Below are positions 1-52,139 of a DNA stretch of 64,000 nucleotides, piece after piece. How positions within the stretch are numbered: position 1 is the first letter of the stretch; every line of letters starts with the position of its first letter. Source of the stretch: Deltaproteobacteria bacterium (GTDB lineage: Bacteria > Myxococcota > Kuafuiibacteriia > Kuafuiibacteriales > Kuafuiibacteriaceae). A model generated the notes under the pieces. The model did no database searches, was not told the DNA's origin, and worked only from the letters and a program-made list of their open reading frames with translations. A program made the translations under genes and the position numbers. The DNA is taken from the NCBI GenBank assembly GCA_016703535.1, contig JADJBV010000001.1, forward strand, positions 6,382,270-6,446,269, given 5' to 3'.

Positions 1-2377
1 GGAGCTCCGGCTTCACCTCGCCCAGGGCACCGGCGATGTCCTTGGCCTTGCCGACCAACATCTTCTGCGCGAAGCCCGCACCTTCACTCGCCGCGGTCGG
101 GAACTCGAACTGCTGCTGGATCGCTCGGAGCAACACCTCGTAGGCGTAGGGACGTTCGGTCAAGGCCTCGAGGACTCGGCGAGCCTCCACCAGGGTCTCG
201 GCGTCGTTGACCCGCAGCTCCCGCAAGAAGCGGAACCAGTGATCGGCGAACTTCTCCAGGTAGAGGTCCCGGAAGTGTTCGGCCAACTTTCGATCGTCCT
301 CGTATTCGCCCAAAACCCAGGCGTCTACGCCCTCGGGCGTTTCGCCCAACTTGGAGCGCACCAACTTCCAACCCGCCCGTGAATACAGGCCCGGCACCGC
401 GTATCCGGCGGTCAAGGCGCCATGAGCCCGGCCCCCCAACAGCTCCCTCAAGGTCACCGGTTGTGAACCTTGGGCGGCCTCGGCCACCAGCCGGTGGTAT
501 TCGGCGTCCCGCTCCTTCAGCGACTTCCTGGCGCTTTCGATGATCCCGTCGTCCGGGTTGGCCCAGCGGGCCGCGCCGCTCTGCACCAACGACAAATAAC
601 GGGCGATCAACTTGGACAGGACGGCCTGCTCCTTGGCCACCTCGGGGTGCAGCTGCTTCTTCCACTGCTCCAACAAGACCGGGGTCGCGAAGGCCACCTC
701 CAGGTGTTCCCGTTGGGTGGTCAACATCAGGTAGGTCTTGAGCAGGTCGTAGTCGGCGACCACGTTTTGGGCACCGCCGGTGCTGACCATGTCGGTCAAC
801 GTCGCCTCCAGCTCCAAGGCGGTGGGGTCGACAAACACTCGCTTCAGCTGGGCGGCGTAGAAGCGGGACAAGGGCGGCAACAAGGTGGGCCCTACAAAAA
901 AGCCGGCGCCGTACCCGATCGGCAAGTTGGCTTGCAAAACCTCGAGCTGGGCGATCGAGTCACCGACCCCGGCCAAGGCGGTCAACCCAGCGATCACCTC
1001 GGTGGGCTGATCGCTGTCTTGGCCTTTGGTGGCTTCGGCCCGGGCCACAACCTCTTGGGTGAGGGCCTGGTTGTTGATGGTCCCGGCGATGGACAAGCCG
1101 AGCACCAAGAGGCCCACCGCGACCCCGGCGATCAATCCACCCACCTGGACCCGGGCCCGCCGTTGACGGCCCAAGACCGAAAGACCGCCGCGGCCAACGT
1201 CGGCGAAGGCGACCTTGCCGTAGAGATCGTGGAGGAAGTAGCCCTTGGTTTCGGCGGGCTTCTCGACCGGGACCTTGACCGGCACCAACCCAAAACCGCG
1301 CCGCACCTCGGCCAAGACCCGATCGATGGTCCGCCCGTCTTGGTGAGCGCTGGTGAAGTACACGCCCCCCAGCGGCGATCGTTCCCCGTAGCTGTTGGGT
1401 TGGAGCAAGACCCGCAGGAAACGCTGCAAGGGAACTTGCGTGGCGCGGAGCTGCGAAGGGAGTTGATAGGCCCGCCCCCGCTCCTTGGGCTGGCACTCCA
1501 CCAGCCGAGCCCGAACGTGTTCGTGGAGCCGTTGGTAGAGGTGTTGGTAGGCCTCGGGCAAGGTGGCCTCGGGATCTCCTTCGGGCACGGCGAAGCCCAA
1601 GGTCTGTCCTCGAGTGGCGCCGGCCAACCCCGAGAAGGCCTCGACGAAGCCCGGCAAGACGTCGCTCTTGCAAAAGACCAGATACACCGGCGGCAGGCGC
1701 TCCAACCCGGCGATGCTTTCGTGGAGCTGACGTCGCAGCCGGGTGGCCAAGGCATCGGCGGCCTCTGGCGCCCCCAACAGGTCCCCCAGCGGCACACACA
1801 ACAGGATGTTCTCCACCGGGACCGCGGCCTTGCGCAGGACGGTCAACACCTCCAACCACTCGTCGTGATCCGGGCCGTCCTCCCGTTGGCCGTAGCGACC
1901 GGCGGTGTCGACCACCACGCCGTTTTTGGCGAACCACCACTCGATGTCGGTGGTGGGATCTTCGGGCTTGGCTTCGCCCAAGGTGGTCAGCTGAAAGTCG
2001 AGGCGGGAGCGGCGCAGGATCGAGGTCTTGCCCACGCCGCTGGGGCCGATCATCAAGGTCCAAGGCAAACGGTGGAGGCCCGGGCCTTGGGCGCCGGCGG
2101 TTTTGGAGGAGGCCAAGGCCACGCCGACCTTTTGCAACTTGGCTTGCAAACGTGCCTTCACCTCGGGCGCCACCACCCGAGCCGACGAAGGTTGGTCGGC
2201 CCGTTTGGCCTTTTGGCTCTTGATGATCCGAAAAACGACGAAGCCGAGGTACGGCAACAGCAATAACGCCGCCACGCCAAGCTGCACGCCGGACGACAGC
2301 CCAAGGCCCGCGCCGAAGACGAACAACGCCGCCACCAGGGCCACCAACACCAACCCCACGATGATCAACAACACCAT
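1..2377 (-). CDS. tssM: Type VI secretion membrane-complex protein TssM (IcmF-like), N-terminal part; gene continues beyond window start
   Basis: Minus frame from ATG 2375-2377 reads MVLLIIVGL... (hydrophobic N-terminus). Walker A LMIGPSGVGKTS is encoded at about 2011-2046. A sampled stretch (about 1502-1558) reads PEAYQHLYQRLHEHVRARL with GC-rich third positions. It sits immediately downstream of tssL. It is absent from the ORF track only because there is no stop in the window. Confidence 0.65.
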   Translation of the reverse strand, partial: MVLLIIVGLVLVALVAALFVFGAGLGLSSGVQLGVAALLLLPYLGFVVFRIIKSQKAKRADQPSSARVVAPEVKARLQAKLQKVGVALASSKTAGAQGPGLHRLPWTLMIGPSGVGKTSILRRSRLDFQLTTLGEAKPEDPTTDIEWWFAKNGVVVDTAGRYGQREDGPDHDEWLEVLTVLRKAAVPVENILLCVPLGDLLGAPEAADALATRLRRQLHESIAGLERLPPVYLVFCKSDVLPGFVEAFSGLAGATRGQTLGFAVPEGDPEATLPEAYQHLYQRLHEHVRARLVECQPKERGRAYQLPSQLRATQVPLQRFLRVLLQPNSYGERSPLGGVYFTSAHQDGRTIDRVLAEVRRGFGLVPVKVPVEKPAETKGYFLHDLYGKVAFADVGRGGLSVLGRQRRARVQVGGLIAGVAVGLLVLGLSIAGTINNQALTQEVVARAEATKGQDSDQPTEVIAGLTALAGVGDSIAQLEVLQANLPIGYGAGFFVGPTLLPPLSRFYAAQLKRVFVDPTALELEATLTDMVSTGGAQNVVADYDLLKTYLMLTTQREHLEVAFATPVLLEQWKKQLHPEVAKEQAVLSKLIARYLSLVQSGAARWANPDDGIIESARKSLKERDAEYHRLVAEAAQGSQPVTLRELLGGRAHGALTAGYAVPGLYSRAGWKLVRSKLGETPEGVDAWVLGEYEDDRKLAEHFRDLYLEKFADHWFRFLRELRVNDAETLVEARRVLEALTERPYAYEVLLRAIQQQFEFPTAASEGAGFAQKMLVGKAKDIAGALGEVKPEL

Positions 2378-2381: not shown

Positions 2382-3038
2382 TCAGCTCCGCACCGCGCCG
2401 ATCCGCTCGGCAGCGTTGGCCGCGGACTGCCGGGTGTAGGCCAATAGGCCGAGGCCGATCAAAAGCGAAAGGCCCAACACCGACAGGCCGATCACCAGGC
2501 CCGGGAAGGGGCGCCGCCGCCCACCCCCTTGGAGCCGAGGCACCCCGTCGGGCGAAAGTTCCTCGCCCCCCGAGACCTCCAGGCCGGCCAAAGTTGCGGC
2601 CATGATCCGAGGCAACTCTTCGGACTTGCCGATCCGGTGGCGACCCAAAAACCCAAGGCCCAAGCAGAGGTGATAAACCTCCAACACGCCGGGGGATCGT
2701 TGGCGCACCACCTCCAGCCGTTCGTAGAAGCGTACGCCGGCCATCCGCTCGTTGTAGAGCTCGGCCTGAAGTGGCCTCGAGGCCCACTCCAACTTGCCGC
2801 TCCACTGGCTGAACTGGATCACCTCGTCGATGAGGGCGGTCAGCGCGTATCGCGCGTCGTCGATGTCCCCCGGGCTGTGGCCGGCTCGGCGCGCCTCCTG
2901 CTGAAACCGCTCCAGCGCCGCTTTGATCTTGAGGTTGGCGGTGGGGGCGTCGGGCAACTCACTGTGGCCCTCGGCGATCTGCGAGGCGCAGAGCAGGAGC
3001 TCTTGCGCCAGCTCGGCCAGCGGCACCGGCGCGTTCAT
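2382..3038 (-). CDS. tssL: T6SS membrane protein TssL (DotU family), 218 aa, C-terminal TM helix
   Basis: DotU-like core motif RYALTALIDEVI and a single C-terminal TM. Synteny tssJ-tssK-tssL-tssM. Confidence 0.75.
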   Translation of the reverse strand: MNAPVPLAELAQELLLCASQIAEGHSELPDAPTANLKIKAALERFQQEARRAGHSPGDIDDARYALTALIDEVIQFSQWSGKLEWASRPLQAELYNERMAGVRFYERLEVVRQRSPGVLEVYHLCLGLGFLGRHRIGKSEELPRIMAATLAGLEVSGGEELSPDGVPRLQGGGRRRPFPGLVIGLSVLGLSLLIGLGLLAYTRQSAANAAERIGAVRS

Positions 3039-3039: not shown

Positions 3040-4380
3040 TCAGAGCTCCACGGCCAACAGCTCCAGCTTCACCTGCTGGGGCTTGAGCGGCTGGAAGATG
3101 GCGATGGTCCCGCTCTTCAGGATGTCCTGCCAGTGGGAGCCCGCCTGGCCAAAACGCAGGTACACGTTGTCCGGCTTCACCGGGATGGCGGTCGGGGGCG
3201 AAAGATCCACCTGGAGCTCCAGGCCCGGCACCGCCGCGTGGACCACGTTGGTGATCTGCTCGTAGGAGCTGACCCGCACGTAAAGCGGCAACTCTTGGCG
3301 CAGCGTGTTCTCCGGGATCTCGCCGCTGGCCACCAGGTAGAGCTGGGACTTCTTCAACAAGGTCTGATCCAAACCCCGGGCCAAGAACAAACCGGGCTGA
3401 GGTTGTTCGAGGGGCAGCGACTTGTATTGCTGCGCGATCACCGTCGCCAACAACTCCGACAGCTGATCGAAGATCGGATAAAGGGACTCGGCCAGCTGCA
3501 GGTGTTCGTAGCGCGGCAGATCTTTGGGCTTACGTTGGGGCTCGAAGGTGGCCAGGCGCCCGACCAGCTCCGTCAACGTCAGGTACAAGCGCTCCGGGTG
3601 GGCCCGGCCGGTCGACGCCAAGTGCTGAAGCACCGGCACCGACGCGTTCAGCGTGTAGAGGTACCAAAACGTCACCATGTCGACCGAGCCGAACTCGACC
3701 AAGGAGGTGCTGCGGCCTCGATACCGTCCGGCCAAGGCGGTTTGTTTGGCGGCGGCCAAGGTCACCAACCCCGACAAACGCCGGGTCAAGGCTTGGCTGG
3801 CGGTGGTGGACAAACACGGCGGCACATAACGTTCCGACACCACCAAGGCGCCCGCTTCGTTGACCTCCAGCTCGGCCAACTTGAGGGTCACGTAGTTGGC
3901 CCGGTCTTCGGAGCCGAGGAGGAGCTGCACGTTGGGTCGCACCAGCTCCAGCTCCGCGTCTTCGGCGGTGCCGTACGCGTCGGGGGTGGGGTGAGTGACC
4001 CGCACCAAACGAGCGCCAGCGGCCCCGGGTTCACCGGCATAACTCGAGCTGCCTCGGGTCGCGTTGCTGGGCACCGCCAAATAAACTTCGGCCTTGGGAC
4101 CCCCACCACTCAAGGCGCCGTTGGCCATCACCACCGCCGCTTTGCTCGGGTGATCGGGGCCGATCTGCACCAAAAGACCGTCGGGCATCACCGCGGTCAA
4201 CCGCCGCACCTCGTAGAGCCCCCGGGTCAAGGCGTCGGGCGCGATCTCCAGCTCGGCCACTCCGAAGCCGTGAGGATGGAGCGCGCCCAGGCGTTGATCG
4301 ACCTCCTCCTCGAAGTGGCGTTCCAGCGCCTGAAAGTGTTGGGGCATCATGTAGAGCCCCTCTTTCCACATCGGCTTCAT
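3040..4380 (-). CDS. tssK: T6SS baseplate protein TssK (ImpJ/VasE), 446 aa
   Basis: N-terminus MKPMWKEGLYMMPQHFQALERHFEE matches the TssK consensus (W.EG.fL.PQHFQQ). Size is typical. It is 2 nt from the tssL start. Confidence 0.8.
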   Translation of the reverse strand: MKPMWKEGLYMMPQHFQALERHFEEEVDQRLGALHPHGFGVAELEIAPDALTRGLYEVRRLTAVMPDGLLVQIGPDHPSKAAVVMANGALSGGGPKAEVYLAVPSNATRGSSSYAGEPGAAGARLVRVTHPTPDAYGTAEDAELELVRPNVQLLLGSEDRANYVTLKLAELEVNEAGALVVSERYVPPCLSTTASQALTRRLSGLVTLAAAKQTALAGRYRGRSTSLVEFGSVDMVTFWYLYTLNASVPVLQHLASTGRAHPERLYLTLTELVGRLATFEPQRKPKDLPRYEHLQLAESLYPIFDQLSELLATVIAQQYKSLPLEQPQPGLFLARGLDQTLLKKSQLYLVASGEIPENTLRQELPLYVRVSSYEQITNVVHAAVPGLELQVDLSPPTAIPVKPDNVYLRFGQAGSHWQDILKSGTIAIFQPLKPQQVKLELLAVEL

Positions 4381-4390: not shown

Positions 4391-4906
4391 CTATTCGGCG
4401 GCGGGCTTGAGTGGCTCGGCGATCACTCGGTTGTCGGCGAGCTGAGCGCGGATCTGGGTGTGGAGTGACTCGGGCGTACAAGCGTCGACCGCCGGGCGCA
4501 CGTCCACCACCTTCTTCCACTGGTTGCCATCGTACTGACGGAAGATCCCGACGATCGCTACGAAGGCCAGCTCCGGAGAGCCGACCACGGTCTCGATCTT
4601 TTCTTCCGCCGGAAACACGGTGAAGGTCACCGTCTTGATCAAGGTCGGGCCCAGGGCTTCGGTGCCGCTGCGCCACAAGGTGTTGAAGTCGAGCTCGTCG
4701 AACTTGTCGGTGGACTTGAGCAAATAAGCCCGCACCTCGACCGGCAAAGACTGGCCCTCGGGGCTGAGGTTCAGCACTTCACCCGCTTTGACGAAGAGCT
4801 CGAGGGGGATCTCTTTACACTTCTCCGGCCCGGGGAAGAGCGAACGATACAGGCTGCAGCCCGGCAACAAGGCCAAGATCAGGAGCCAAACACTACGCGA
4901 CATCAT
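4391..4906 (-). CDS. tssJ: T6SS outer-membrane lipoprotein TssJ-like, 171 aa
   Basis: Lipobox LLPGCS, size about 170 aa, position upstream of tssK. Confidence 0.65.
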   Translation of the reverse strand: MMSRSVWLLILALLPGCSLYRSLFPGPEKCKEIPLELFVKAGEVLNLSPEGQSLPVEVRAYLLKSTDKFDELDFNTLWRSGTEALGPTLIKTVTFTVFPAEEKIETVVGSPELAFVAIVGIFRQYDGNQWKKVVDVRPAVDACTPESLHTQIRAQLADNRVIAEPLKPAAE

Positions 4907-7119
4907 GGTACCCGGAACACCAGTCGGACCGAGCCGACCCGAACCTCTTGCCCGTCGCGCAAGGTGGCGAGGCCCACCGGCTTACCGCCGAACTCGAGCC
5001 CGGCCTCGGCGCCCAGGTCGGCGATCTGACAGACCTGGCCATCCAGACGCGCCGCGGCGTGGATCCCGCCGACGCCCGGGCCCCGGACCATCACTTCGGC
5101 CCGAGGGTGAGCGCCGATCGAGCTGGTGACGCCGTTTTCCAGCGGCACGTGGGCGCCATCGTCAGGGCCACCGACCACCACCAGGTACGGTTGTCGCCCG
5201 GGGGAGTCCATGCGGAAGCGGGTCGCGATCTTCACCAAAAGTTCGGTGTCGCCCACGTGGATCCGTTCGTCATCCTTCAACACCCGCCGCCGCTCTTGGC
5301 CGTCGTCGCCGCGGGTGACCATCACCCACCGGCCCAGGCCGTCGAGATCAAAACGGGCCGACGAAGGACGGCTGGTGGCCGAACCGACGCGGAAGTCACC
5401 GCCATCGCCCACGACATAACCGGGCCGCAAGACCAAGGTGGTCCGTGGTCCGTCGTGGAGCGGCAACAACCAAGCGGCCACGTCCACCGACTCGACTTCG
5501 CTGGCGCTGAGGACCTGGGTCTTCTTCGACAGAGGGTCGACGGTGGACTGCTCCGAGCTCGGCGCCGAAAGAGGTGCGCCGCCCAAGTTGGGCAAGGCCA
5601 CCGGCGGCAACGAAGGCTTGGCGCTCAAGCTGCCCATGGTGCTGATCACGGGCTCGGGGGCTTTGGCGTCCCCTTTGGCGATCCGCAAAAACTGGGTTGG
5701 CGATGGCAAGGCCAGCTCGTTGTTGGCGTCGGGCGAACGAGGGCCCGGTGGCGGTCGGGTCTCGGCTTCACTCTCTTCCAGGGAGGGCTGCTCGAGGTGA
5801 GCGGGAGGCATCGACAAGGTCGGGATGATCTCGTCGTCGTCTTTGACTACCGGCTTGGGCGCGGGGGCTTTGACCTCGACCTTGGCGGCGGCTTTGGGGT
5901 CGGGCTTGGCGGCGTTGGGAGCCGGTTTTTTGGGGACCCCCCGCACCTCCACCTTGCCCTCGGCTCGCCCCTCCGCGGCTCGGGACGGGGTGATCTGCAT
6001 GCCCTTGATCATGCCCGTGTGCTCGAGGGAAGCGGGGGCCGCGCTTTTCATGTCTTGCAAGACAGCTTGCGCGCTGGCGACCTGACGGCGCCGGGCTTGG
6101 GTCATCAGCACCACGCCGCCCGCGAGGAACAAGAGGCCACCGGCGATGGCCAACACCAAACCCCAGTGAGCAAAGCCCGGCGGCTCCACCAAGGGCAGAT
6201 CGATCTGGACCGCGTCGGTGGCCAGATCGGCGCCGGCCTCGATCTGAAAATCGGTCACCTTGCCGGTGAAGAGTTGGGGCAGGTCGTACTCCAACACCCG
6301 CTGGTGCCGCAGCTCGTCGGCCAAGGCCACCAGGGCCGCCTTCATGTCGGGCACGTTGGTGCTGGGCCGCATGGTGCCGCCGCTGCGTTTGCTGAGTTCG
6401 GTCAAGGTGCGCAGCGGGGTGTCGTCGATGGGCGCGTAACCGACCGCGTGGATCCGGATGCCTCGGCTGGCCGCGTCGCCGCCCAACTTGGTGAAGGCCC
6501 CAAACTTGAGCTCGGCGGCCAGGCCATCGGAGACCACCACCAAAACCCGGCGTTCTGGCAAGTTGGCTTGCGAAAGTTGAGCGAGGCCGTCCCGGACCCC
6601 GTCGGGGAGCTCCAGCTCGATCGCATCTTCTTTGATCTGGAGCGCCTGCAGGGCGTCGCGGGCCGCCTTGACCGAGGTCGGCTTGAGTTCGCTGATCACG
6701 CCGTCGGCGTAGGCGATCAGGCCCACTTGGGAGCTGGGAGGCACCAGATCCAAGAGCTGCAGGAGCCCCGCCTTCAATTCGGCGAAGGCCGATCCAAAGA
6801 TCGGCGAACACTGGATCACCATGGTCAACGCCATGGGCTCCCCCAACTTGCCGAAGGTCTCGACCTGGGCGGCGTTGGGCAGGCGTTGGCCGTTGACCAA
6901 CAACTGATAGGGACGGGGAGTGGCCGGCGGGATCACCAAGCCGTTTTCATCGAGGTCGCTGAGGTAGATCCGAACCTTGGTCGGGGGTGAGGTCGCGATC
7001 CGCTCGATGCGCAGCGTGGGCTTTTGGGTCGAGGGACCGGCGGCCCCGACGGCGGGCCACAAGAGGCTCAACAAGAGGAGGCCGACCCCGAGGGTCGAGC
7101 GGCCGAGCGGGGCGCCCAT
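4903..7119 (-). CDS. Signal-peptide protein with N-terminal vWA-like domain, central TM/Pro-Ala-Lys-rich linker and C-terminal FHA domain (T6SS-associated, Fha/TagH-like role?)
   Basis: Start chosen at ATG 7117-7119 (MGAPLGRSTLGVGLLLLSLLWPAVGAAG signal); a GGAGG lies about 17 nt upstream. vWA-like strand RRVLVVVSDG. C-terminal FHA-like ...GQEVRVGSVRLVFRVP. Stop overlaps the tssJ start (ATGA at 4903-4906). Confidence 0.6.
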   Translation of the reverse strand: MGAPLGRSTLGVGLLLLSLLWPAVGAAGPSTQKPTLRIERIATSPPTKVRIYLSDLDENGLVIPPATPRPYQLLVNGQRLPNAAQVETFGKLGEPMALTMVIQCSPIFGSAFAELKAGLLQLLDLVPPSSQVGLIAYADGVISELKPTSVKAARDALQALQIKEDAIELELPDGVRDGLAQLSQANLPERRVLVVVSDGLAAELKFGAFTKLGGDAASRGIRIHAVGYAPIDDTPLRTLTELSKRSGGTMRPSTNVPDMKAALVALADELRHQRVLEYDLPQLFTGKVTDFQIEAGADLATDAVQIDLPLVEPPGFAHWGLVLAIAGGLLFLAGGVVLMTQARRRQVASAQAVLQDMKSAAPASLEHTGMIKGMQITPSRAAEGRAEGKVEVRGVPKKPAPNAAKPDPKAAAKVEVKAPAPKPVVKDDDEIIPTLSMPPAHLEQPSLEESEAETRPPPGPRSPDANNELALPSPTQFLRIAKGDAKAPEPVISTMGSLSAKPSLPPVALPNLGGAPLSAPSSEQSTVDPLSKKTQVLSASEVESVDVAAWLLPLHDGPRTTLVLRPGYVVGDGGDFRVGSATSRPSSARFDLDGLGRWVMVTRGDDGQERRRVLKDDERIHVGDTELLVKIATRFRMDSPGRQPYLVVVGGPDDGAHVPLENGVTSSIGAHPRAEVMVRGPGVGGIHAAARLDGQVCQIADLGAEAGLEFGGKPVGLATLRDGQEVRVGSVRLVFRVP

Positions 7120-7255
7120 TCGGGCCCTTTTATCAGCCTCCTCGGTCCGCCGCACAACCCCGGTCCATCGCCCGGTCGGGGCCTGGACAATTCCTCCTGA
7201 AAGGCTAGACTTCCCGCACCGTTTGGGCCGGCTTTCGGCCCGACGCACCACGCGC
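7120..7255. promoter_or_regulatory. Divergent intergenic/promoter region between the vWA-FHA gene (-) and the PP2C-FHA gene (+)
   Basis: 136-bp non-coding gap between divergently oriented start codons. Confidence 0.35.
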
Positions 7256-8319
<1,064 letters not shown>

Positions 8320-8320
<1 letters not shown>

Positions 8321-9303
8321 TGCGCGCCGCCGTTTGGTTGCTTTTGGCTTGGCCTTCGGTCGCGGGGGCCGAACCCAGCCTACGTTTGTTGGCCGTGGAT
8401 CCGTCGGCCTGTGCGCGTGACGGCGTGGTGAAGGTGGAGCTGGAGGAGCTGGAGCTGGAGGGCGAGGTCCGAGACTTTCCCGCCAACACCTTCCGCTTGG
8501 TCCTCGACGAGTTGACCTTGGGGCAAGAGGCGGTGCACGCGCAGACCCTGGCCCAGTCGGAGGTGCCGCTGTCGATCGCGGTGGTGCTGCAGGCCGACCT
8601 TACTTATCGGCCTGACTTCGAGCGCCTGACCCAACTCACCCGTACTTTCTTGCGCGCCTTGCCCGCTCGAACTCAAGTGGGGGTGTGGACGTACGGCGAC
8701 GCGGTGATCGCCCGGGCCCAAGGCACCACGCCGGATCTGGCCGCCGACAGCATCGCCCAGATCTTTGCGGTGGATCGGGTGGGGAGTTCCGCGCTGCAAG
8801 CCTGGCAACAAGCCTTCACAGCCCTGCGAGCGGCGCCGGGCCGGCGCTTTTTGATCACGGTGGCCGACGGCAAAAACGAGGCCCCCGACCGAGCCGCGAT
8901 CCGCGCGTTCGGGGATCAGCTGGCCGCCGCCGGAATCTTGTTTCATCCCCTCGCCTACTCTCCCGCCGACGATCGGGAGCCGATGCTCCACCTGGGTGAG
9001 TTGGCCAAACGATCGGGCGGCACTTTTCGCTTAGGCACCAGCCTAAGTGATCTCGAGGCCCAGCTCGCCAACCTGAGCGCCCAGCTGGAGCGCCGCTGGA
9101 TCTTGAGTTTTTTGGTGCCGGATCGGTGTGCCCAGCCCCACCAACTCCAGGTTGGCCATGGCGCACTGCGCTCCGAGCCCCGGCCTTTGCCGGCGGTGGT
9201 GCCGCCGCCGCCGCCGGTGGGGATCTACGTGGGGGTCGGGGTGGGCGTGTTGGCGCTGGGAGCCGTGGGATTTTTGGTGCACCGGCGCAGGCGGATGGGG
9301 TGA
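8320..9303 (+). CDS. Secreted vWA-like domain protein with C-terminal TM anchor, 327 aa
   Basis: Signal peptide MRAAVWLLLAWPSVAGA; vWA-like core (RRFLITVADGKNE); C-terminal TM VGIYVGVGVGVLALGAVGFLV + RRRR. Its start overlaps the PP2C stop by 1 nt (TGATG at 8318-8322). Confidence 0.55.
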
Positions 9304-10562
9304 ACGTGGGAGCACCCCATCACCTCACCGATCGAGTCATCGCCGGCTACCGCACGGTGGCCATCGGGACCTTCAACTTCTTGCTGCTCTTTGGGCTGGT
9401 GAACGCCATCGCCCACGCGATCTTGGTCTCGCCGGCGCCCCATCCGGAGGGAGGTCACTTCCTGTCGGCGGGGGCGGCGCTGACGGAGCGCACGGAACTG
9501 TTGCGTGGACGTTATCCGGGGCGAAGTGACGCCGAAATCCGCACCTTGATCGAGACGCCCCAGGTGATGGCCCATCCCAAGCTTGAGTTTATCGGGAGGC
9601 CGGGCACCTCGGGCTTCTACACCGTCGGCGCCGACGGGGTGCGCAGCAACGGAGCGCAGGAGTCGTCCCGAGCCCTCGATGACGCGGTGTGGGTCTTCGG
9701 TGGGTCCACGGCCTTCGGGCACGGCGTGGCCAACGAGGACACCATCGCCGCGGCGCTGGAGCGGCTCGATCCTTCGCGCCGATACTTGAACCTGGGCGTT
9801 CAAGGTTACCACCTGAACCTTGAGTTGGATCGGCTGGTGCATTTGCTCAAGCAAGGCCACCGCCCCCGCCACGTCATCTTCATCGACGGCCTCAACGACG
9901 CCATCGCCTGCCGGGCGAGCAACTTCGCGCCCGAGGACCTGCCCTTCTTCGTCGCCAACGCCTACGGTCACCAGTACAACATCGCCCACGAGGTGCTGCC
10001 CAAGGGGTTGGGGTGGTTCCTGCGGCAGCTCCCGGTCACCAAGCTGATTCGGCGGGAGTGGGCCGCGGGGAAGGCACAAGAAGAACCCAGGGATCCCGGG
10101 TACACCGATCCCCACGATCCGTCGTCACTCTACGTGCGAGATCCGCTGCTCCACTACGAGCTCAACCAGGCGCGAGTTCGGGAGCCCAGCGCCACCCCAA
10201 GCGACGTCGAGAAGTTTCGACGCTACTATCGCGCCAACCTCGAGCTGCTGCGGGGGCTGGAGAAGGGCTTCGGCTTCCGAGGTGACGTCTTCTTTCAGCC
10301 CAACGGCCTGCTCAACCTGGAGACCGGCTTCGTCTTGGATCCCAGCCAGTACCAGACGAGTGAACTCTACCGGAGCCTCGAGGCCATGCAGGCGGCGATC
10401 AAAACCGACCTCGCCGCCGGCCGCTTGCCCGGCATGGTCGATCTGAGCGAGGCGGATCGGAGCTGCCGCGACTGCTACGTCGACGCGGTCCACTACGACC
10501 GGCGCCTGGCCGAGGTCCTGGCTCAACACATCCTCACCACCACCTCCTCGATCGGTCGCTGA
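9300..10562 (+). CDS. Membrane-anchored SGNH/GDSL-type hydrolase (esterase/acyl-hydrolase)
   Basis: N-terminal TM (TVAIGTFNFLLLFGLVNAIAHAILV). SGNH blocks FGGSTAFG (block I, Ser), IDGLNDAIA (GxND) and DAVHYD (DxxH). GTG start at 9300 overlaps the upstream stop (GTGA); alternative GTG at 9306. Confidence 0.55.
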   Translation: MNVGAPHHLTDRVIAGYRTVAIGTFNFLLLFGLVNAIAHAILVSPAPHPEGGHFLSAGAALTERTELLRGRYPGRSDAEIRTLIETPQVMAHPKLEFIGRPGTSGFYTVGADGVRSNGAQESSRALDDAVWVFGGSTAFGHGVANEDTIAAALERLDPSRRYLNLGVQGYHLNLELDRLVHLLKQGHRPRHVIFIDGLNDAIACRASNFAPEDLPFFVANAYGHQYNIAHEVLPKGLGWFLRQLPVTKLIRREWAAGKAQEEPRDPGYTDPHDPSSLYVRDPLLHYELNQARVREPSATPSDVEKFRRYYRANLELLRGLEKGFGFRGDVFFQPNGLLNLETGFVLDPSQYQTSELYRSLEAMQAAIKTDLAAGRLPGMVDLSEADRSCRDCYVDAVHYDRRLAEVLAQHILTTTSSIGR

Positions 10563-10662: not shown

Positions 10663-12033
10663 ATGGTGCGTCATGGTGTGGTGCTTGCGCTCCTCCTGAC
10701 CGCGGTGAATGCGGGGTGCGTCGCGCCGACGGAAGAACTTGGTCTTGGGGTCGGGATCGACGCCAACTTCGAGGCGAGGGACGCCGGCGACGATGGCGAT
10801 GATTCGTCCATTGCGCCTCGAGATGGCGGCGCCGACTTGGATGGGGCGGTGGGTCGGGACGCAGCCCCTCGAGATGTGGCGACGACCCCCATGGAGCGCA
10901 TGGCCTGCGGCTTGCCGCTCCCACCGGTGCAGTCGAACCCGACGTTTCCCGATCTGGCCGAGCTGAACATGGAGCTCCGCCCCGGCCTCGGCGCGACCTT
11001 TCGCGGACGACTCGTGGAGCCCGGGACCCTCTTCCGCATCTGGCTCGAGCTGGTGGACGAGTCGGGGAGGGTCGTCAAAGCCGAAGCGTCGGTGGAGCCT
11101 GATGAGTTCGAGCTCTTCGTTGGTGTCGACGCCTGCACCCAAAGCGGGGTGCGACGCCTCCAAGGCGTGATCCTCCGGGACTCCAACCAGCTCGAGACCA
11201 TGTTTCGGGATCTCGATGGGGATGGGGTCTTTGAAGTCATTCAGGACGGAGCCCCGCGCGGACAGCGGGATCTGGGCCGCTGGATCCTGAACTCTCCCAC
11301 GGCTTCGAGCGCTCACCCGATCCTGACGTCCATCACTTTGGCACCGTTGGACGCAGGCGAGGGCGTGGGTTTCGCCGCCAACGTCACCCTCTCGGGCGGG
11401 GAAGGTTGTGGCGCGGCTTCGGTCGTCTCCTTCGCCCGGGCCGTGAGCAACTATCCCTGCCAACCGGTGCTCCAGGGGGTCTCCAGCCTCGTCGGCGGTC
11501 GGGCCCGACCCGCCACGATGATGCGCCGCTGCATGGGCGGCGGCACCTGGACCATCGAGGGGCTGGCGCTCCGACCCAACTCCCATCCTTGGGATTTGGT
11601 GCCGATCGAAGATCCGAGTGGCTTGCTCCCAATCTCGATCGATCTGGGCGGGCCGGCTCCGTTCTCAGGTGTGCCTCAGGTCGAGGGCCTGACCTTCTCG
11701 AAGGAGTCGCGTTCGGACGGTACGGTCATCACGGTGGTCGGCGACTCCAACTTTCGCTGCCCCGCCTCCGGGAGCATCACCTTCAACCCTCTCGAGCCCA
11801 ACGCCCTCCCGGTCACCGGGATCGCCTCTTTGGGCGGCGGCGACTTCAGCGCCTGCCTCTTCATTCCGAAGAAGTGGTCGCCCAATCGCTTTGAGCTCTC
11901 CCAGATTCGGGTCCGCCCCGAGTACGGATGTGATCTGAACTTGGTGGCGCGTGGTGGGGTGCTGCAGGACCTCAGCCAACCCGGCTCCGGCTCCGAACTC
12001 CCGACGGCACTCCCGGTGATCACGACACCCTGA
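10663..12033 (+). CDS. Hypothetical lipoprotein (Asp/Gly-rich N-terminus), 456 aa
   Basis: ATG 10663, lipobox LLTAVNAGC; the antisense ORF 10534..11586 looks like GC artefact. Confidence 0.5.
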   Translation: MVRHGVVLALLLTAVNAGCVAPTEELGLGVGIDANFEARDAGDDGDDSSIAPRDGGADLDGAVGRDAAPRDVATTPMERMACGLPLPPVQSNPTFPDLAELNMELRPGLGATFRGRLVEPGTLFRIWLELVDESGRVVKAEASVEPDEFELFVGVDACTQSGVRRLQGVILRDSNQLETMFRDLDGDGVFEVIQDGAPRGQRDLGRWILNSPTASSAHPILTSITLAPLDAGEGVGFAANVTLSGGEGCGAASVVSFARAVSNYPCQPVLQGVSSLVGGRARPATMMRRCMGGGTWTIEGLALRPNSHPWDLVPIEDPSGLLPISIDLGGPAPFSGVPQVEGLTFSKESRSDGTVITVVGDSNFRCPASGSITFNPLEPNALPVTGIASLGGGDFSACLFIPKKWSPNRFELSQIRVRPEYGCDLNLVARGGVLQDLSQPGSGSELPTALPVITTP

Positions 12034-12579: not shown

Positions 12580-15500
12580 TCAGTACCAGTTGCCCGCCAC
12601 GGAGCCAGGACAGCTCCCGCCGGTGGTCACTTGGCCCGCGGCCCCCACACCCCCACCGTATGGGTTGTTGGTGCCGAAGTGCCACCGATACTCGGGCGAG
12701 TTGCAGGTGCAGGTGGCGCCGGGGGTCACGGTGGTGAAGGTCCCGCCGCAGGCGCGACCGCAGTTGGTCACGTTGTAGTGTCGATTGCAGGCGTCGAGGG
12801 CCCGCTGGTAGGAGCTCGTGTCGACCGGGCTCTCGTTGTAGAAGAGGGTCCCGAGGCCGGTGCTGTGTTCGTAACCTCGGAGGCCACATCCGCCGCTCGA
12901 GTCCACCGGAGCCTCACGACCGTCGGCAATGCCGTTGAAGCAACGACCCTCGATCTTCTGCACCAAAGCCACGCCGGAAGGTCCGATCGCTTGGGTGGCG
13001 TTGCCGCCGAAGAGGTACATCTTCCCGTGCAGCGTCGTGTGGGCGAAGCGATCCAGCGGCGACAGTAGGGCGCTGTCTGGGCCGATCGGGGTCAAGGCCG
13101 CGCCGCTGACGACCGCTTCACTCTCGATGACCTTGGTGGGCTGGTCGGCCCGCCGACCGGCGACCAGGCTCAATTGATCCCGCACCACGAAGGCGGCGCC
13201 ATGAGAGAAGGTAAAGCGCGCCGAGCTGCGGCTCGTCCAGTTGTTGCTGACGAAGCTGAGCATGGTGTTGTGGGGCGTGCCTTGATCGTTGAGGCCGCCG
13301 ACCACTCGCACCACCCCGGCGTGGGTGAAGGCCGAGGCCCCGGTGCGGGCGCTCGGGAGCACCGGCGCGCTGCTCCAGGTGTTGGCCACGGTGTCGTAGA
13401 CCTCGACCGTCTGGAGCGCACCGCCGTTGTAGCCGCCGATCACCCAGATCTGGGTGCCCTTGACCGTCACGGCCGCGTCCCGACGCGCCACCTGCATCGG
13501 CGTGCGCGGGATCCACTGGTTGAGGATCGGATCGTAGGCCCGGACGGTGGCCACTGAGTTGCCGAAGCTGTCGGCGCCGCCGATGGCGTACACCAGGTCC
13601 CCGACCGCGGCCGCCACCAGGCCACTTTGATGGGTGCCGAGGGGCGGGAGGATCCGATAGACCTCGGTCTCGGGATCGAACTCCCAGGCGGTGAGTTCTT
13701 CGGAGAAGTTGCGCCCTCCGAAGAGATAAACGCGGCCGTTGAGGGTGGCGGCGGCCTGCATGAAGCGCGCAGCCGGAAGTTCGGCCAAACGCCGCACGTA
13801 GTCCTGCGAGAAGTTGAACTGGACGCTGGTGTCCACCGGGCCGGCGCTGGTCTGGCCGCCGAGCACCCAAAGCGCAGCGCGTTGGGTGTCGACGTCGTCG
13901 GTGTCGACCACGATCAGGCCGGAGCCGCTGTGACGAGCGGCCGGCATCGGGGTGCGTTCGCGCCAGGCGTCGTCTTCGATGAGGTACTCCTCGACCTTGG
14001 CGGTGGCCGCACCACCGGCGACGCGACCGCCGGCGATCACCAGCCCGCGATGCCCACCATTCACTACCCCGGCGTTGATCAACTTACCGCCGGCCGCGAA
14101 GGAGCGCGGCGTCGGGAGCGCGGCCCCCAAGCTCCAGCTGTTGGCGCCGACGTCATAGATGTCGACCTCGGGGATCGGGTTGCCTTGGGCGTCTTCACCG
14201 CCGGCGACGATGATCCGGTTGCCCTCCACCACCGCGTTGAACGCATAACGCGGTCGCGGGAGTTGAGCGACCTGGTTGGTCCAGGCGCCGGTGCCGAGGT
14301 TCAGGACCTCGTGGTTCGGGAGCACCACGCCGCCGTTGGTCTTGCCACCCAGGACGTGGACCGAGTTGCCGACCACGACCGCGCTGAGGCCGAAGCGGGT
14401 GCTGGGCATGGGCGCCAAGTTCTCCCAGGTCGCTTGGGCGTTGCTGAGATCGAGCCGCTCGACCCGACCGAGGGGCGTGCCGTTGTTTTCGCCGCCGATG
14501 GCGTAGAGTTGGTTGCCCGAAGCCGCGATCGCCAGCTGGGCCCGGCCGCCGCTCATCGAGGCCAAGGCGGTCCAGGTCGCGGTCCCGAGGTCGTAGGCGA
14601 AGGCGCCCGCCTGGGGCGCGAGGCCGTCGGAGCCGCCGACCATGATCACCCGGGTGCCGACTTGGGTGGCCGCGGTGTGGATCAGGCTCTCCGAGAGCAT
14701 GGGCGCTGGGCGCCAGCCATTGCCATGGCCGGTGATCTCGTAGCTGGCGTCCACCACGTTGGCTTGCCAGTTGCCGGCCCGGTCCCGGGCCCGAAGGCGC
14801 AGGGTCGTGTCGTCGAAGACCCGGATGTCCTTCACCGACTCGAAGCTCTCCGAGTCTTCGGTGGGCGTCGAACCGTCGGTGGTGAAGTACACGGTGGCCG
14901 GTTCATCGCTGGCCAGGCGCACGGTGACGCCATTCAGGAAGGTGCCGCCCGAGGGGCTGAGAGAGGTGTTGGGAGGCGTGATGTCGTAGACGATCCGGGC
15001 CTCGATGGTGGCGCTCCCCTGGCCCTGGTCCACACTCCGCACCACGTAGACGTTTTCGCCAGGGACCAGGTTCAAGGCCACAGTCCAGGTGGTGTCGGGG
15101 CTCTGGGGCACGGCCTCCAGGCCGTTGATCTCCACCGAGGCGCCGGCCGGTTTGGTGCCGCCGAGGCTCAACACGCCGACGTTGGTCGGGGTGGTGTACG
15201 GGTTGAGGGTCGGCGGCTCGATGCACCCGCCGATGGGGCTCACCTGGCAGGTGCCGGCCTGGCAGACGTCGTTGGTGCAGGCATTGCCGTCGCTGCAGCT
15301 CGCGACCTGGGGCTCTTGGGCGCAGCGGTTCCGCGAGAAGTCGAAGTAGTCTCGGGTGCAGGGGTTGCGGTCGTTGCAGAGCGCGGCGTCATCGATGGCC
15401 TCACACACGCCGGCGTTGCAGATCTGCCCGATCGGACAGGCGCCGGTCTGATTGTTTTGGGAGCAGCCGATGCCGGCGTCGGTGCAGACCCCGGCGACGC

Positions 15501-16632
15501 AGTCGAAGCCGGTGGCGCAGAGGCCGTTGGGGTTGGTCGTGGAGCACAAGGTCGAGTCGGGTCGGCAGCGGCCCTCCAGGCAGGTCTCCTGGGTGCCGCA
15601 GACCGGGCATCCCGTCGGGGCTTCACACACGCCGTTGGTGCAGATCTCCCCGGCCGGGCACAGGCCCGTAGGCTCGGCCACCGAGCAGAGATCGGCGGTC
15701 GGGACACACAACCCTTCCAAGCAGCTGTTGCCGCTTGGGCACAGGCCGGTGGGGCGGGTGCTCGAGCACAAGAGCGTGGCGTCGACACATTGGGCGTCGA
15801 GACAGGTCTGTCCGGTCACACATCGTCCGCTGGGGTTGGTGGCGCTGCAGAGGTCGGCGTTTTCGACGCAGGCACCCTCGAGGCAGGTTTCGCTCATCGG
15901 GCAAAGACCCGCGGGCAACGCCGGCGCGCAGAGCAAGGTGTCGTTGGTGCAGTTGCCGTCGAGGCAGGTGCGACCGGTGGCGCAGAGGCCGCCTGGGTTC
16001 GCGGCGCTGCAGAGATCGCCCATGGCCACGCAGGTGCCGTCGAGGCAACGTTCACCGCCGGCGCAGAAGCCCATCGGCTCCGCGGGCGAACAGGGATTGG
16101 GCGTGGCGCAGGCGCCGTTGGTGCAGCTGAGGCCGCCGCCACACAACCCGGTCGGGTTGGTGGTGCTGCACAGGTTGGCCTCGGGGACGCAGTTCCCTTC
16201 GAGGCAGGCTTCGGTGGTGAGCAGGCACAAGCCCTCTTGGTTGGTGCCGGAGCACAACAACGCGTCGCTGATGCACTGGCCGGCGCGGCAGCTGGTCCCA
16301 GCGTCACAACGCCCGGTCGGGTTGGCGACGCTGCACAGGGCGGTCGCGCTTTCGCAGACGCCCCCGCGGCAGGTCTCGTTCGGCGGGCAGAGGCCCGTGG
16401 TGTTGCTCGCGCTACAGAAGGCCGCGTCCTCGAAGCACTGGCCGCCGTAACACTGGTATCCGGCCGCGCAGAGCCCGGTGGGGGCGAGGGGGCCGCAGAG
16501 TTCAGGGCCCACGCCGCTGTCGGCCGGCGGAGTGCCCGAGTCGGCGGGACTTGGCCCGGGCCGCTCGCTTTCGCCGCAGGCGGCGAAAAAGACCAAGGCG
16601 AGTCCGGGGACCAAATGGCGAGCGCTGAGCAT
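12580..16632 (-). CDS. Giant lipoprotein (1350 aa): about 17 tandem Cys-rich about 20-aa modules, Kelch-type beta-propeller repeats, chitobiase/beta-hexosaminidase-C-like domain
   Basis: Lipobox LALVFFAACG. Repeats of the form LCSxxNPxGLCxxGxxCxxGxC. Kelch motifs (W..L..MP..R.....VVGN.IYV.GG). Also TVYFTTDGSTPT. Confidence 0.75.
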   Translation of the reverse strand: MLSARHLVPGLALVFFAACGESERPGPSPADSGTPPADSGVGPELCGPLAPTGLCAAGYQCYGGQCFEDAAFCSASNTTGLCPPNETCRGGVCESATALCSVANPTGRCDAGTSCRAGQCISDALLCSGTNQEGLCLLTTEACLEGNCVPEANLCSTTNPTGLCGGGLSCTNGACATPNPCSPAEPMGFCAGGERCLDGTCVAMGDLCSAANPGGLCATGRTCLDGNCTNDTLLCAPALPAGLCPMSETCLEGACVENADLCSATNPSGRCVTGQTCLDAQCVDATLLCSSTRPTGLCPSGNSCLEGLCVPTADLCSVAEPTGLCPAGEICTNGVCEAPTGCPVCGTQETCLEGRCRPDSTLCSTTNPNGLCATGFDCVAGVCTDAGIGCSQNNQTGACPIGQICNAGVCEAIDDAALCNDRNPCTRDYFDFSRNRCAQEPQVASCSDGNACTNDVCQAGTCQVSPIGGCIEPPTLNPYTTPTNVGVLSLGGTKPAGASVEINGLEAVPQSPDTTWTVALNLVPGENVYVVRSVDQGQGSATIEARIVYDITPPNTSLSPSGGTFLNGVTVRLASDEPATVYFTTDGSTPTEDSESFESVKDIRVFDDTTLRLRARDRAGNWQANVVDASYEITGHGNGWRPAPMLSESLIHTAATQVGTRVIMVGGSDGLAPQAGAFAYDLGTATWTALASMSGGRAQLAIAASGNQLYAIGGENNGTPLGRVERLDLSNAQATWENLAPMPSTRFGLSAVVVGNSVHVLGGKTNGGVVLPNHEVLNLGTGAWTNQVAQLPRPRYAFNAVVEGNRIIVAGGEDAQGNPIPEVDIYDVGANSWSLGAALPTPRSFAAGGKLINAGVVNGGHRGLVIAGGRVAGGAATAKVEEYLIEDDAWRERTPMPAARHSGSGLIVVDTDDVDTQRAALWVLGGQTSAGPVDTSVQFNFSQDYVRRLAELPAARFMQAAATLNGRVYLFGGRNFSEELTAWEFDPETEVYRILPPLGTHQSGLVAAAVGDLVYAIGGADSFGNSVATVRAYDPILNQWIPRTPMQVARRDAAVTVKGTQIWVIGGYNGGALQTVEVYDTVANTWSSAPVLPSARTGASAFTHAGVVRVVGGLNDQGTPHNTMLSFVSNNWTSRSSARFTFSHGAAFVVRDQLSLVAGRRADQPTKVIESEAVVSGAALTPIGPDSALLSPLDRFAHTTLHGKMYLFGGNATQAIGPSGVALVQKIEGRCFNGIADGREAPVDSSGGCGLRGYEHSTGLGTLFYNESPVDTSSYQRALDACNRHYNVTNCGRACGGTFTTVTPGATCTCNSPEYRWHFGTNNPYGGGVGAAGQVTTGGSCPGSVAGNWY
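15300..16450 (-). repeat. Intragenic tandem repeat block encoding the Cys-rich modules
   Basis: Recurrent nucleotide and peptide pattern inside the giant lipoprotein gene. Confidence 0.5.
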
Positions 16633-23143: not shown

Positions 23144-23794
23144 TCAGCGTAGCGCCGGTCCTTGACCTTCCGCGCCCTCCGGGCCCTGCTTCTTGCGGTC
23201 GCCGAACAACATGGCTCGGATGCCGGTGTGAGGCTCGGAGACCGTGATGGCCAGGTACACGTGGACGATGAGGAACATCGTGAAGACATAGGCCGTCACC
23301 GAGTGCCCGATCGCGACCGGGAGGAGCCCCGGCAGGCTGGCGACCTTCTCGGGAACCGATAACGGAAAGAGCAAGAGCAGGCCCGTGCCGATCTGCACCG
23401 GGAACATGAGGAAAACCGCCCCGATGTAAGAGACCTGCTGCAGCGGGTTGAAGCGACTGACGACCGTCGCCGGAAATGGGTGGTGCCCGCCCTGGAAGAT
23501 GTCCGAGAGATAATAACGAACCTGCCTGGCCGCGCGCCGAAAGAACGGGCGCCGGGGGACGTACTGCCTCCAGTGTCCCGTCCAGACCATACTCGCCAGG
23601 TAGAAGACATAGGCGAGTGTGCAGGCCACCCCCGTGGCGTTGTGACCCAGGACCGCCCAGCGAAAGTAGCCGCCGGCCCCGGCCTCGCCGTAGTGCAGCG
23701 CGAAGCCCGTCGCTACCAGGGCCAGAAACAGGAACGCGTTCACCCAGTGCCAGGCCCGCAGCCATCCTGGGAACATCGGCGTCGGCTTCTTCAT
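23144..23794 (-). CDS. Membrane b-type cytochrome subunit (Ni/Fe-hydrogenase/formate dehydrogenase-gamma/PhsC-like), 216 aa
   Basis: MFPGWLRAWHWVNAFLFLALVATGFALH; four TM with conserved His; ATGA overlap with the upstream multiheme gene. Confidence 0.7.
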   Translation of the reverse strand: MKKPTPMFPGWLRAWHWVNAFLFLALVATGFALHYGEAGAGGYFRWAVLGHNATGVACTLAYVFYLASMVWTGHWRQYVPRRPFFRRAARQVRYYLSDIFQGGHHPFPATVVSRFNPLQQVSYIGAVFLMFPVQIGTGLLLLFPLSVPEKVASLPGLLPVAIGHSVTAYVFTMFLIVHVYLAITVSEPHTGIRAMLFGDRKKQGPEGAEGQGPALR

Positions 23795-26270: not shown

Positions 26271-26438
26271 CGGCTGACGGCGACGCTACTTCGGCGCAGA
26301 GGGAATTCAAAACGCGGTCGTCGTGACCGCGGAGTAACCTACCAAGAGGTAACAATTTGCGGGGCTGCGCCTGTGGGGGTCGAGCGGAAGTATAGGGTCC
26401 AAACCCTACAGCAGACGAACCTGGGCATTTAGGGCAGC
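26271..26438. promoter_or_regulatory. Putative promoter region of the cytochrome operon (AT-richer: gaattcaaaacgcgg..., ggtaacaatttgcgg)
   Basis: Non-coding, locally lower GC, upstream of the first operon gene. Confidence 0.3.
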
Positions 26439-28610: not shown

Positions 28611-28616
28611 GACCCA

Positions 28617-28623
28617 CCTCCTT
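28617..28623 (-). promoter_or_regulatory. Ribosome-binding site AAGGAGG of the RNA ligase gene
   Basis: Plus-strand cctcctt, 6 nt upstream of ATG. Confidence 0.6.
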
Positions 28624-28699
28624 TGGCGGAGCCCAAGGCCCACGCCATCCCGCGATAGAGCATCGAGCGCAGAGCGGCTCGAAGGAACCGGGACCGAGG

Positions 28700-52080: not shown

Positions 52081-52139
52081 TACACCCCGACCCTAGGGGG
52101 TGGCTGGAATAATGGAAAGGCCCTCAATTCACCTTCTTT

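Follow-up and report, generated by a model that had tools for sequence, protein, structure and literature searches.

The 64,000-nucleotide window analysed here (GenBank assembly GCA_016703535.1, contig JADJBV010000001.1, positions 6,382,270 to 6,446,269), from a Deltaproteobacteria bacterium assigned to the Myxococcota, opens with four genes of a type VI secretion system (T6SS), tssM, tssL, tssK and tssJ. They form a minus-strand operon with the gene of a membrane protein, designated A, and a divergent plus-strand operon encodes proteins B, C, D and E (Table 1). Together, A, B and, in some lineages, C make up an accessory module of the T6SS membrane complex that is specific to a clade of uncultured, Polyangia-like Myxococcota. 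A joins a von Willebrand factor type A (vWA) fold outside the membrane to two forkhead-associated (FHA) folds inside it, B combines a PP2C phosphatase with an FHA domain in one chain, and C is a secreted paralogue of the A ectodomain.

The operons were delimited by GC content by codon position in a window that is GC-rich as a whole (about 0.66-0.67), and A, B, C and D are all of coding type, with a third-position GC content (GC3) of 0.80-0.88. Three gene overlaps can be read in the sequence: ATGA between the stop of A and the start of tssJ, TGATG between B and C, and GTGA between C and D. A, a bitopic protein of the inner membrane, is translationally coupled to tssJ. Gene calls of the JGI in a 96.8%-identical strain (locus L013; related loci are referred to by such numbers) give products of 738, 354, 327 and 420 aa, the same lengths as A, B, C and D. 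The start codon of A at 7119, on which the first-pass annotation of this DNA had made the signal peptide of the protein depend, is correct, since a hydrophobic signal peptide (residues 10-28) is present and the JGI lengths agree.

The same annotation had spoken of a T6SS locus. This holds for tssJKLM, but the genes of the window are a split-off membrane-complex subcluster (tssJKLM-tssF) and not a whole T6SS locus, since in L013 the tssM gene, whose full-length product has 1130 aa, is followed only by tssF and then by non-T6SS genes. Elsewhere in the window, Pfam found no other T6SS genes, and tblastn found no homologues of TagH, TagF or the amidase described below in the window.

Table 1. Positions of the genes, protein domains and other features discussed. 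Coordinates refer to the window unless a locus number is given; residue numbers are those of the protein named.
Feature	Position	Strand	Basis and remarks
tssM, 5' part (cut by the window end)	1..2377	-	Pfam IcmF-related_N and IcmF-related
tssL (DotU)	2382..3038	-	Pfam DotU, E=2.8e-43
tssK	3040..4380	-	Pfam T6SS_VasE, E=1.9e-108
tssJ, lipoprotein	4391..4906	-	Pfam T6SS-SciN, E=2.4e-23; lipobox LLPGC; start overlaps A stop (ATGA)
A, 738-aa bitopic accessory protein	4903..7119	-	Signal peptide, beta/vWA ectodomain, transmembrane helix, disordered linker, two FHA-fold domains
A residues 1-28, signal peptide	7036..7119	-	Hydrophobic segment 10-28, ends in AVGAAG
A residues 35-307, periplasmic beta strands and vWA fold (97-279)	6199..7017	-	Pfam VWA, AF2, Foldseek, alignment
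A residues 321-339, transmembrane helix	6103..6159	-	Hydropathy, AF2; RRR next, on the cytoplasmic side
A residues 360-545, Pro/Ala/Ser/Lys-rich disordered linker	5485..6042	-	pLDDT below 50; composition
A residues 471-477, LPSPTQF linear motif, [LI]P[SD]P[TED]x[FY]	5689..5709	-	Conserved in the family
A residues 547-633, first, highly degenerate FHA-like beta domain	5221..5481	-	AF2 pLDDT about 80; hhalign
A residues 645-736, second FHA-fold domain (predicted pseudo-FHA)	4912..5187	-	GarA alignment; Foldseek
Divergent intergenic region between A and B	7120..7255	.	Sigma-70-like site within
Sigma-70-like site upstream of B	7184-7211	+	Consensus match only
B, PP2C (residues ~8-245) and C-terminal FHA (residues ~258-350)	7256..8320	+	Pfam, PDB matches
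C, secreted vWA-like paralogue of the A ectodomain, C-terminal membrane anchor, no cytoplasmic domain	8320..9303	+	Sequence comparison, hydropathy
D, N-terminally anchored SGNH hydrolase	9300..10562	+	Conserved catalytic residues, AF2/Foldseek, hydropathy
E, predicted lipoprotein	10663..12033	+	Lipobox NAG|C; no family match
Short-paralogue/amidase loci, Polyangia metagenome-assembled genomes	L003 10001-13329; L009 10001-13317		Gene overlap, translational coupling

Architecture of the proteins

The layout first proposed for A, a gene upstream of tssJ coding for a periplasmic vWA domain, a transmembrane segment, a linker and a C-terminal FHA region, agrees with Pfam, AlphaFold2 (AF2), Foldseek and hydropathy. 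Pfam VWA matches with an E-value of 1.4e-5, over the gathering score, while Yop-YscD_cpl, the best FHA-type Pfam match, and FHA fall just under theirs; with phmmer, the last 100 residues align to the FHA domain of GarA at E=2.6e-11. In the AF2 model, built from 11 sequences, residues 97-279 adopt a Rossmann-type vWA fold, a long helix starts at 316, residues 360-545 are disordered, and two beta domains occupy 547-633 and 645-736. By Foldseek, the ectodomain resembles the vWA structures of ITIH1, ArnB, CMG2 and BatB, and the last domain resembles GarA, OdhI and FhaA; the E-values of the vWA and FHA matches are 1e-11 to 1e-8, and the TM-score between the second FHA-fold domain and GarA is 0.86. 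The two beta domains align to each other by hhalign (probability 96%, E=1.5e-9), and the first also gives weak matches to the FHA domains of FhaA and EmbR. Since the signal peptide is followed by a single transmembrane helix and then by RRR, the vWA domain is placed outside and the FHA pair inside.

The assignment of vWA modules to A and C is supported at the level of the fold, but the metal ion-dependent adhesion site (MIDAS) is lost in both. Its DxSxS motif is replaced by QCSPI in A, where alignment shows the Gln to be conserved in T6SS-type members, and by QADLT at the same position in C. Metal-dependent vWA adhesion by either protein was ruled out by this loss.

In the second FHA-fold domain of A, residues of the phosphothreonine pocket differ from those of GarA, Arg being changed to Ala, Ser to Gly and Asn to Ala. 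The loss extends over the family: among 26 long-type members, Arg is found in none, Ser in one and Asn in one, whereas the structural His is kept by all 26. Short paralogues of A outside T6SS loci keep K/S/H/S/N in their FHA domain. Judged by these residues, the C-terminal domain of A is a pseudo-FHA and, since Arg, Ser and Asn are lost family-wide, would not act as a canonical phosphothreonine reader; that candidate role was discarded.

The linker of A is about 190 aa long in the window, and homologues have linkers of about 200 to 376 aa. Its short linear motif (Table 1) is found in 23 of the 26 long-type homologues, against 0.18 expected from shuffling, and in two or three copies in some of them. 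The form is LPSPTxF in the window's subclade and LPDPE/DxF in more distant members, and AF2 places a short helix at residues 474-481. The alternation of Ser/Thr with Asp/Glu could mark a phosphosite standing in for acidic residues; a structural reading is equally open, Ser, Thr and Asp all being good helix N-caps. All loci seen with the Asp/Glu form have TagH, while those with the Ser/Thr form are mixed. A second short segment, KTQVL, holds T534-Q535, which is invariant within the nearer subfamily; as a universal phosphosite it was ruled out, the TQ motif being missing in distant long-type members.

In a 98.7%-identical contig (L014, positions 318-2537), gene A is called as three open reading frames of 450, 122 and 126 aa. 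The split corresponds to frameshifts in the low-complexity linker, which are either an assembly error or a real disruption.

The divergent PP2C-FHA fusion was also confirmed, B giving Pfam matches to PP2C_2 (E=1.8e-20) and FHA (E=2.1e-15). Its PDB matches include tPphA, PstP and the T6SS phosphatase PppA of Pseudomonas aeruginosa (6jkv, E=5e-19). About 35 clusters of B orthologues were found before a steep drop in score. The five metal-ligand Asp residues of PP2C are invariant in 35/35 orthologues, while the FHA pocket keeps Arg in 2/35, Ser in 30/35, His in 35/35 and Asn in 31/35; in the window copy, the Ser is replaced by Gly. These residues predict that the PP2C domain of B is catalytically intact and that its FHA domain is atypical, with a partial pocket. 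Both FHA fusion partners of the earlier reading are present, but the pair in A is pseudo-FHA, its second domain having the Arg in none of the 26 long-type members, and B is without it in 33 of 35 orthologues.

C, proposed at first as a second secreted vWA-like protein coupled to B and anchored at its C-terminus, was upheld by its paralogy to A and by hydropathy. It shares 29% identity with residues 82-281 of A (E=5e-21), has no Pfam match, and matches the NCBIfam VWA model TIGR03436 at E=6e-7, under the cut-off of the model. It has a signal peptide and a C-terminal transmembrane helix followed by HRRRRMG. C aligns end to end with short proteins made of a signal peptide, a vWA domain, a transmembrane helix and an FHA domain, and terminates just past the helix. 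Profile support for the domain assignments is uneven: the vWA match of A lies over the gathering score and both domains of B match strongly, but the FHA match of A falls just short and C is missed by Pfam.

D is a membrane-anchored SGNH hydrolase, as had been read from the sequence, with a signal anchor at residues 25-43. Its matches to sequence profiles are weak, and the assignment comes from conserved residues and fold. Ser136, Asn199 and Asp395 do not vary across 22 homologues and His398 is nearly invariant, being kept in at least 90% of them; the SGNH blocks GGST, NLGVQG, GLND and DAVH are present. The AF2 model (pLDDT 83) matches SGNH/GDSL structures in Foldseek, the best being the myxobacterial CgnD, with TesA and GDSL esterases. 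The inclusion of D in a control module did not hold. Its gene is confined to strains with at least 87% identity (L013, L021); L005, with an A that is 80% identical, does not have it, and neither does any more distant locus. D is therefore a lineage-specific recent neighbour outside the conserved module, and a homologue with 39% identity has an unrelated set of genes around it. E is present in L013, and another gene takes its place in L021. Neither D nor E has a homologue in L001-L012. Both were ruled out as module members on these grounds, D having no L005 counterpart and E being replaced in L021.

Distribution of the module and kinase searches

A word-indexed homologue search returned 12 relatives of A, one of them labelled as a protein of a Polyangia metagenome-assembled genome (MAG), and understated the family. 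An exhaustive search gave 30 clusters at E<1e-30 and 203 at E<1e-10. These relatives fall into three groups: long A-type proteins of 700-1040 aa (about 25 clusters), short vWA-transmembrane-FHA proteins of 450-600 aa, and C-type proteins of 330-400 aa. A related-locus search with a six-sequence alignment yielded only one GTDB and one JGI locus, so gene contexts were sampled by exact-protein look-ups.

All the related loci examined have A as the gene immediately upstream of tssJ-tssK-tssL-tssM, overlapping tssJ or closely spaced with it, down to about 30% identity. B stands beside A wherever the flank suffices (L001/2, L005-7, L008, L011, L012, L013, L017, L019, L020 and L021). The pair recurs in about 25-35 related lineages, and all carriers found are uncultured. 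That A, B and C might serve another process and merely adjoin T6SS genes, as the position of the tssJKLM(-tssF) subcluster among unrelated genes in the window could suggest, is hardly credible, being contradicted by this synteny and by the constant presence of B beside A.

The distribution of C is narrower: it is found in the window lineage (including L005, L013 and L021), L001 and L012, and not in L008 or L011. Canonical TagH, with an FHA domain and T6SS_FHA_C, is encoded next to B in six lineages (L001, L008, L011, L017, L019 and L020), and TagF follows tssM in L001, L012 and L020. The pocket of the sister-locus TagH proteins is intact (GR/SxxH/N), so the clade has a true phosphothreonine reader. 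There is no adjacent TagH in the window lineage (window, L013, L021 and L005) or in L012. Since A and TagH coexist in six lineages, A is an addition and neither a replacement nor an orthologue of TagH; a replacing role, tried as a candidate, was ruled out.

The short paralogues point to the origin of A and C. Two of them with a near-canonical FHA domain, P0011 and P0012, are encoded outside T6SS loci by genes that overlap a gene for a 643-aa Amidase_2/M23 protein (Table 1), and a 43%-identical orthologue of this amidase lies inside the T6SS loci L001 and L012, near C. C is closer to the short vWA-transmembrane-FHA proteins than to A. Because of this coupling of the short paralogues to the amidase, its presence in L001 and L012 and the affinity of C, A and C look like two derivatives of one envelope-spanning family recruited to the T6SS. 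Between amidase and C, L001 (5351-6481, plus strand) and L012 (2827-4002, plus strand) also encode a protein of 376-391 aa without family match, which is 55-57% identical between the two loci and not in the window.

The statement that no kinase is in view was borne out. The Hanks kinase motif HRDxKxxN does not occur in any of the six frames of the window, and a PknB kinase-domain probe, identical to PDB PknB and validated in this way, found nothing by phmmer at E<=10 in the window or in L001-L016. Kinase families are missing from the precomputed Pfam lists of 22 loci, and Pfam found no Ser/Thr kinase family in the remainder of the window. Since the cluster is only the tssJKLM-tssF subcluster, this absence says little about the rest of the genome.

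Neither a vWA/FHA membrane accessory nor a PP2C-FHA fusion, nor anything else like A, B or C, is listed in a 2026 review of T6SS accessory genes (PMC13584744); a phosphatase without a kinase, together with a vWA-transmembrane-pseudoFHA protein, is therefore uncatalogued. The rewired control module of the earlier reading accordingly survives as a conserved, kinase-less T6SS accessory module of A and B, but with degenerate FHA domains, and as a supplement to TagH and TagF in most of the related lineages.

Candidate mechanisms and known relatives

The minimal threonine phosphorylation pathway consists of tagE, tagG and tagH, and some species, among them V. cholerae, E. coli O157 and Y. pestis, have tagH without tagE and tagG (PMC13584744). 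The pathway of the P. aeruginosa H1-T6SS (TagE/PpkA, TagG/PppA, TagH/Fha1 and TagF) resembles the module in its PP2C phosphatase, its FHA proteins and its bitopic protein with a periplasmic vWA domain beside tssJKLM; TagH and TagF occur in the sister loci, and the PP2C domain of B resembles PppA. It differs in that no kinase was found here, which leaves the minimal set incomplete. Compared by architecture, A is bitopic with a periplasmic vWA domain like PpkA, but has its N-terminus outside, an inverted orientation, and carries pseudo-FHA domains instead of a kinase. B shares with PppA the PP2C fold and all metal-binding Asp residues, but it is fused to an FHA domain and has no cognate kinase at any of the loci probed. 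TagH (TIGR03354) has an intact N-terminal FHA domain, whereas the FHA-fold domains of A are C-terminal and their pocket is lost. A matches neither PF20232 (T6SS_FHA_C) nor TIGR03354, in contrast to the TagH proteins of L001, L008 and L011; the likeness lies in the position of the gene, which adjoins tssJ. The TagH-only systems are also kinase-less and use FHA accessories, but they are without the phosphatase, which is conserved and intact here and accompanied by an extra membrane protein.

The reading that we favour, at somewhat less than even chances, makes A an adaptor for TssJLM and B a phosphatase like PppA that is tethered there, the kinase acting in trans. A would be both a structural and a regulatory adaptor. 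Its vWA ectodomain would make metal-independent contacts with periplasmic proteins, C and/or TssJ/TssM, while the pseudo-FHA pair and the linker motif would dock TagH, the baseplate or TssL/M, or B, without reading phosphothreonine. B would be the equivalent of PppA (TagG), held at the complex through its FHA domain, and would reverse phosphorylation by a Ser/Thr kinase encoded elsewhere in the organism. Myxococcota encode many Ser/Thr kinases. D would be an unrelated recent neighbour.

Precedents for such use of FHA folds exist in other secretion systems. The best Pfam match of A, Yop-YscD_cpl, is the FHA-like cytoplasmic domain of the ring protein YscD of the type III secretion system (T3SS), a domain that is without phosphothreonine-binding residues. 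The ATPase of type VIIb secretion systems (T7SSb), usually called EssC, is named EccC in the source used here. In firmicutes, the tandem FHA domains at the N-terminus of this type VII secretion system (T7SS) ATPase are required for assembly of the apparatus (PMC13622651). A resembles SctD/YscD/PrgH and the T7SSb ATPase in placing FHA folds at the cytoplasmic face of a membrane component, where they serve assembly. It differs in that its FHA domains are C-terminal, in an inverted topology, and that a vWA ectodomain takes the place of ring-building motifs, so that the relation is one of fold alone.

Several points weigh against the adaptor reading. The mechanism is read from architecture and gene neighbourhood. 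The phosphatase is conserved and intact, yet its kinase and its substrate, and with them the central step, are conjectural. The contexts cover at most 10 kb per side, and a kinase may lie farther off in the cluster. An obligate A-C pair is unlikely, since C is missing in L008 and L011. In the window lineage, moreover, TagH is non-adjacent; should it be missing altogether, as it may be, the one canonical reader would be lost.

The strongest alternative, which nevertheless seems rather unlikely, is that A is itself the phospho-acceptor, a scaffold in the role that Fha1 or TssL has in known threonine phosphorylation pathways. An orphan kinase would mark S473/T475 in LPSPTQF and/or T534 in KTQVL, the mark would recruit TagH or the FHA domain of B, and B would erase it. 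The exchanges of Ser with Asp and of Thr with Glu or Asp in the linker motif are the pattern expected where a phosphosite stands for an acidic residue, both TxxL/F motifs are hydrophobic at +3, as are many FHA ligands, T534-Q535 does not vary in the nearer subfamily, and an intact PP2C is always present. However, the predicted helix begins at 474, where the exchanged residues would be good N-caps, so that the swaps may be structural. Lineages L017, L019 and L020 have a constitutively acidic motif and still retain B, and therefore the linker motif alone is not its substrate. The missing TQ motif in more distant members, the loss of the canonical Arg from the FHA domain of B and the lack of an adjacent TagH in the window also count against it.

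The domain set of the module recurs in dedicated signalling units. In the Deinococcus DRA0331-0334 operon (bioRxiv 10.64898/2026.01.23.701218), genes for vWA, FHA and FHA-PP2C proteins form one signalling cluster, and the Esr pathway of actinobacteria (PMC13622651) has the same domain set inside an Esx secretion locus. Both include an active kinase, and Esr also MoxR, whereas neither kinase nor MoxR is found here, and A carries vWA and FHA on one transmembrane chain, unlike either unit. Another FHA-vWA partnership is that of ArnA (FHA) and ArnB (vWA) of the Sulfolobales. ArnB (PDB 8s05), a vWA domain plus beta-sandwich, is the second-best Foldseek match of the A ectodomain (E=1.6e-10), but ArnA and ArnB are cytoplasmic archaeal regulators on two chains, dependent on phosphorylation and without a link to secretion.

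A less probable alternative, already raised as the second suggestion of the earlier reading, is a periplasmic sensor, in which the vWA ectodomains of A and C would detect an envelope or cell-contact cue and trigger assembly, the pseudo-FHA pair being the output. The combination of a periplasmic vWA domain and a cytoplasmic output on one bitopic chain beside membrane-complex genes is consistent with sensing, as are the two paralogous ectodomains and the analogy to PpkA, whose periplasmic vWA domain works with TagR, and to RtkS (PMC13584744). But a single transmembrane helix followed by a disordered linker of about 190 aa is a poor conduit for a conformational signal, the vWA domains have lost their MIDAS site, neither a ligand nor a TagQRST-like partner is encoded nearby, and C is dispensable in some lineages.

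To cell-wall remodelling we assign a still lower probability. Here, an ancestral vWA-transmembrane-FHA protein with a translationally coupled periplasmic peptidoglycan hydrolase would have been recruited to open the sacculus for insertion of the membrane complex, in the manner of TagX or MltE, and D would have taken the hydrolase slot in the window lineage. The overlap of P0011 and P0012 with the amidase gene outside T6SS loci, the amidase orthologue near C in L001 and L012, the closeness of C to the short paralogues, its overlap in the window with D, a membrane-anchored predicted hydrolase, and the peptidoglycan-remodelling accessories known for T6SS (PMC13584744) all fit this scheme. Against it, the amidase is missing from the window, L005, L008, L011, L017, L019 and L020, any peptidoglycan activity of D is putative, the closest folds to D are the myxobacterial natural-product enzyme CgnD and lipases, and the 39%-identical homologue of D has an unrelated context. 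Moreover, the scheme explains C, but neither A nor B.

The phosphorylation, sensor and cell-wall alternatives are all mutually compatible with the adaptor reading. A further possibility, about as improbable as periplasmic sensing, is a checkpoint without a dedicated kinase, in which A would replace PpkA as trans-envelope organiser of the assembly of the membrane complex and the linker motif would have changed from a docking helix of constitutively acidic character, LPDPEEF, to a phosphorylatable LPSPTQF in the window's subclade, to be written by a housekeeping or orphan kinase and erased by the tethered PP2C-FHA protein.

Flanking genes and implications

Just past the module, a 1350-aa Kelch-repeat protein with a CHB_HEX_C domain is encoded on the minus strand (12580-16632). 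Its counterpart is present in L021 (13342-17394); the stretch concerned in L013 is 1-1003. Synteny between the window and L013, which is 96.8% identical, stops at window position 12034, so the flank beyond the module differs among strains. Farther along, at 23144-26285 (minus strand), a cytochrome b561 gene is followed by two multihaem c-type cytochromes (c3/c7/MtrC-like), possibly an extracellular or periplasmic electron-transfer unit, and at 26668-28757 (minus strand) a protein with HD and AAA_33 domains (polynucleotide-kinase-like) adjoins an RNA_ligase-domain protein, an RNA-repair-like pair.

The region 30000-38000 has a lower GC content (0.565-0.62 versus about 0.67) and encodes Methyltransf_34-like, DUF1848, ThiC-like radical SAM, SIR2_2 and DUF488 proteins; it looks like an acquired islet, possibly of defence type. 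A hybrid histidine kinase (PAS-HisKA-HATPase-REC) is encoded at 50320-52092 (minus strand). Adjoining it, the segment 52140-61029 (minus strand) codes for a 1420-aa Big_5/LVIVD/dihaem-peroxidase-like protein and a 1299-aa protein without family match.

Post-translational control of the T6SS is understood almost wholly from Proteobacteria, through PpkA, PppA, Fha and TagF. In Myxococcota, a phylum of social predators, the module represents a different solution to T6SS control, in which the phosphatase and FHA proteins are retained and the cluster is without a kinase. The new element is a membrane protein with a vWA domain in the periplasm and pseudo-FHA domains in the cytoplasm; the combination of A, B and C is undescribed, while its domain vocabulary (vWA, FHA and PP2C-FHA) is already known. 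Experimental work on the module, limited in practice by the uncultured state of all carriers found, can start from a defined short motif and from a phosphatase that is likewise defined. If the kinase-less checkpoint were true, it would be a natural case of a docking site in a secretion system becoming a phospho-switch. If A proves to be an adaptor of the membrane complex, the T6SS would join the T3SS and the T7SS in using phospho-blind FHA folds for assembly.

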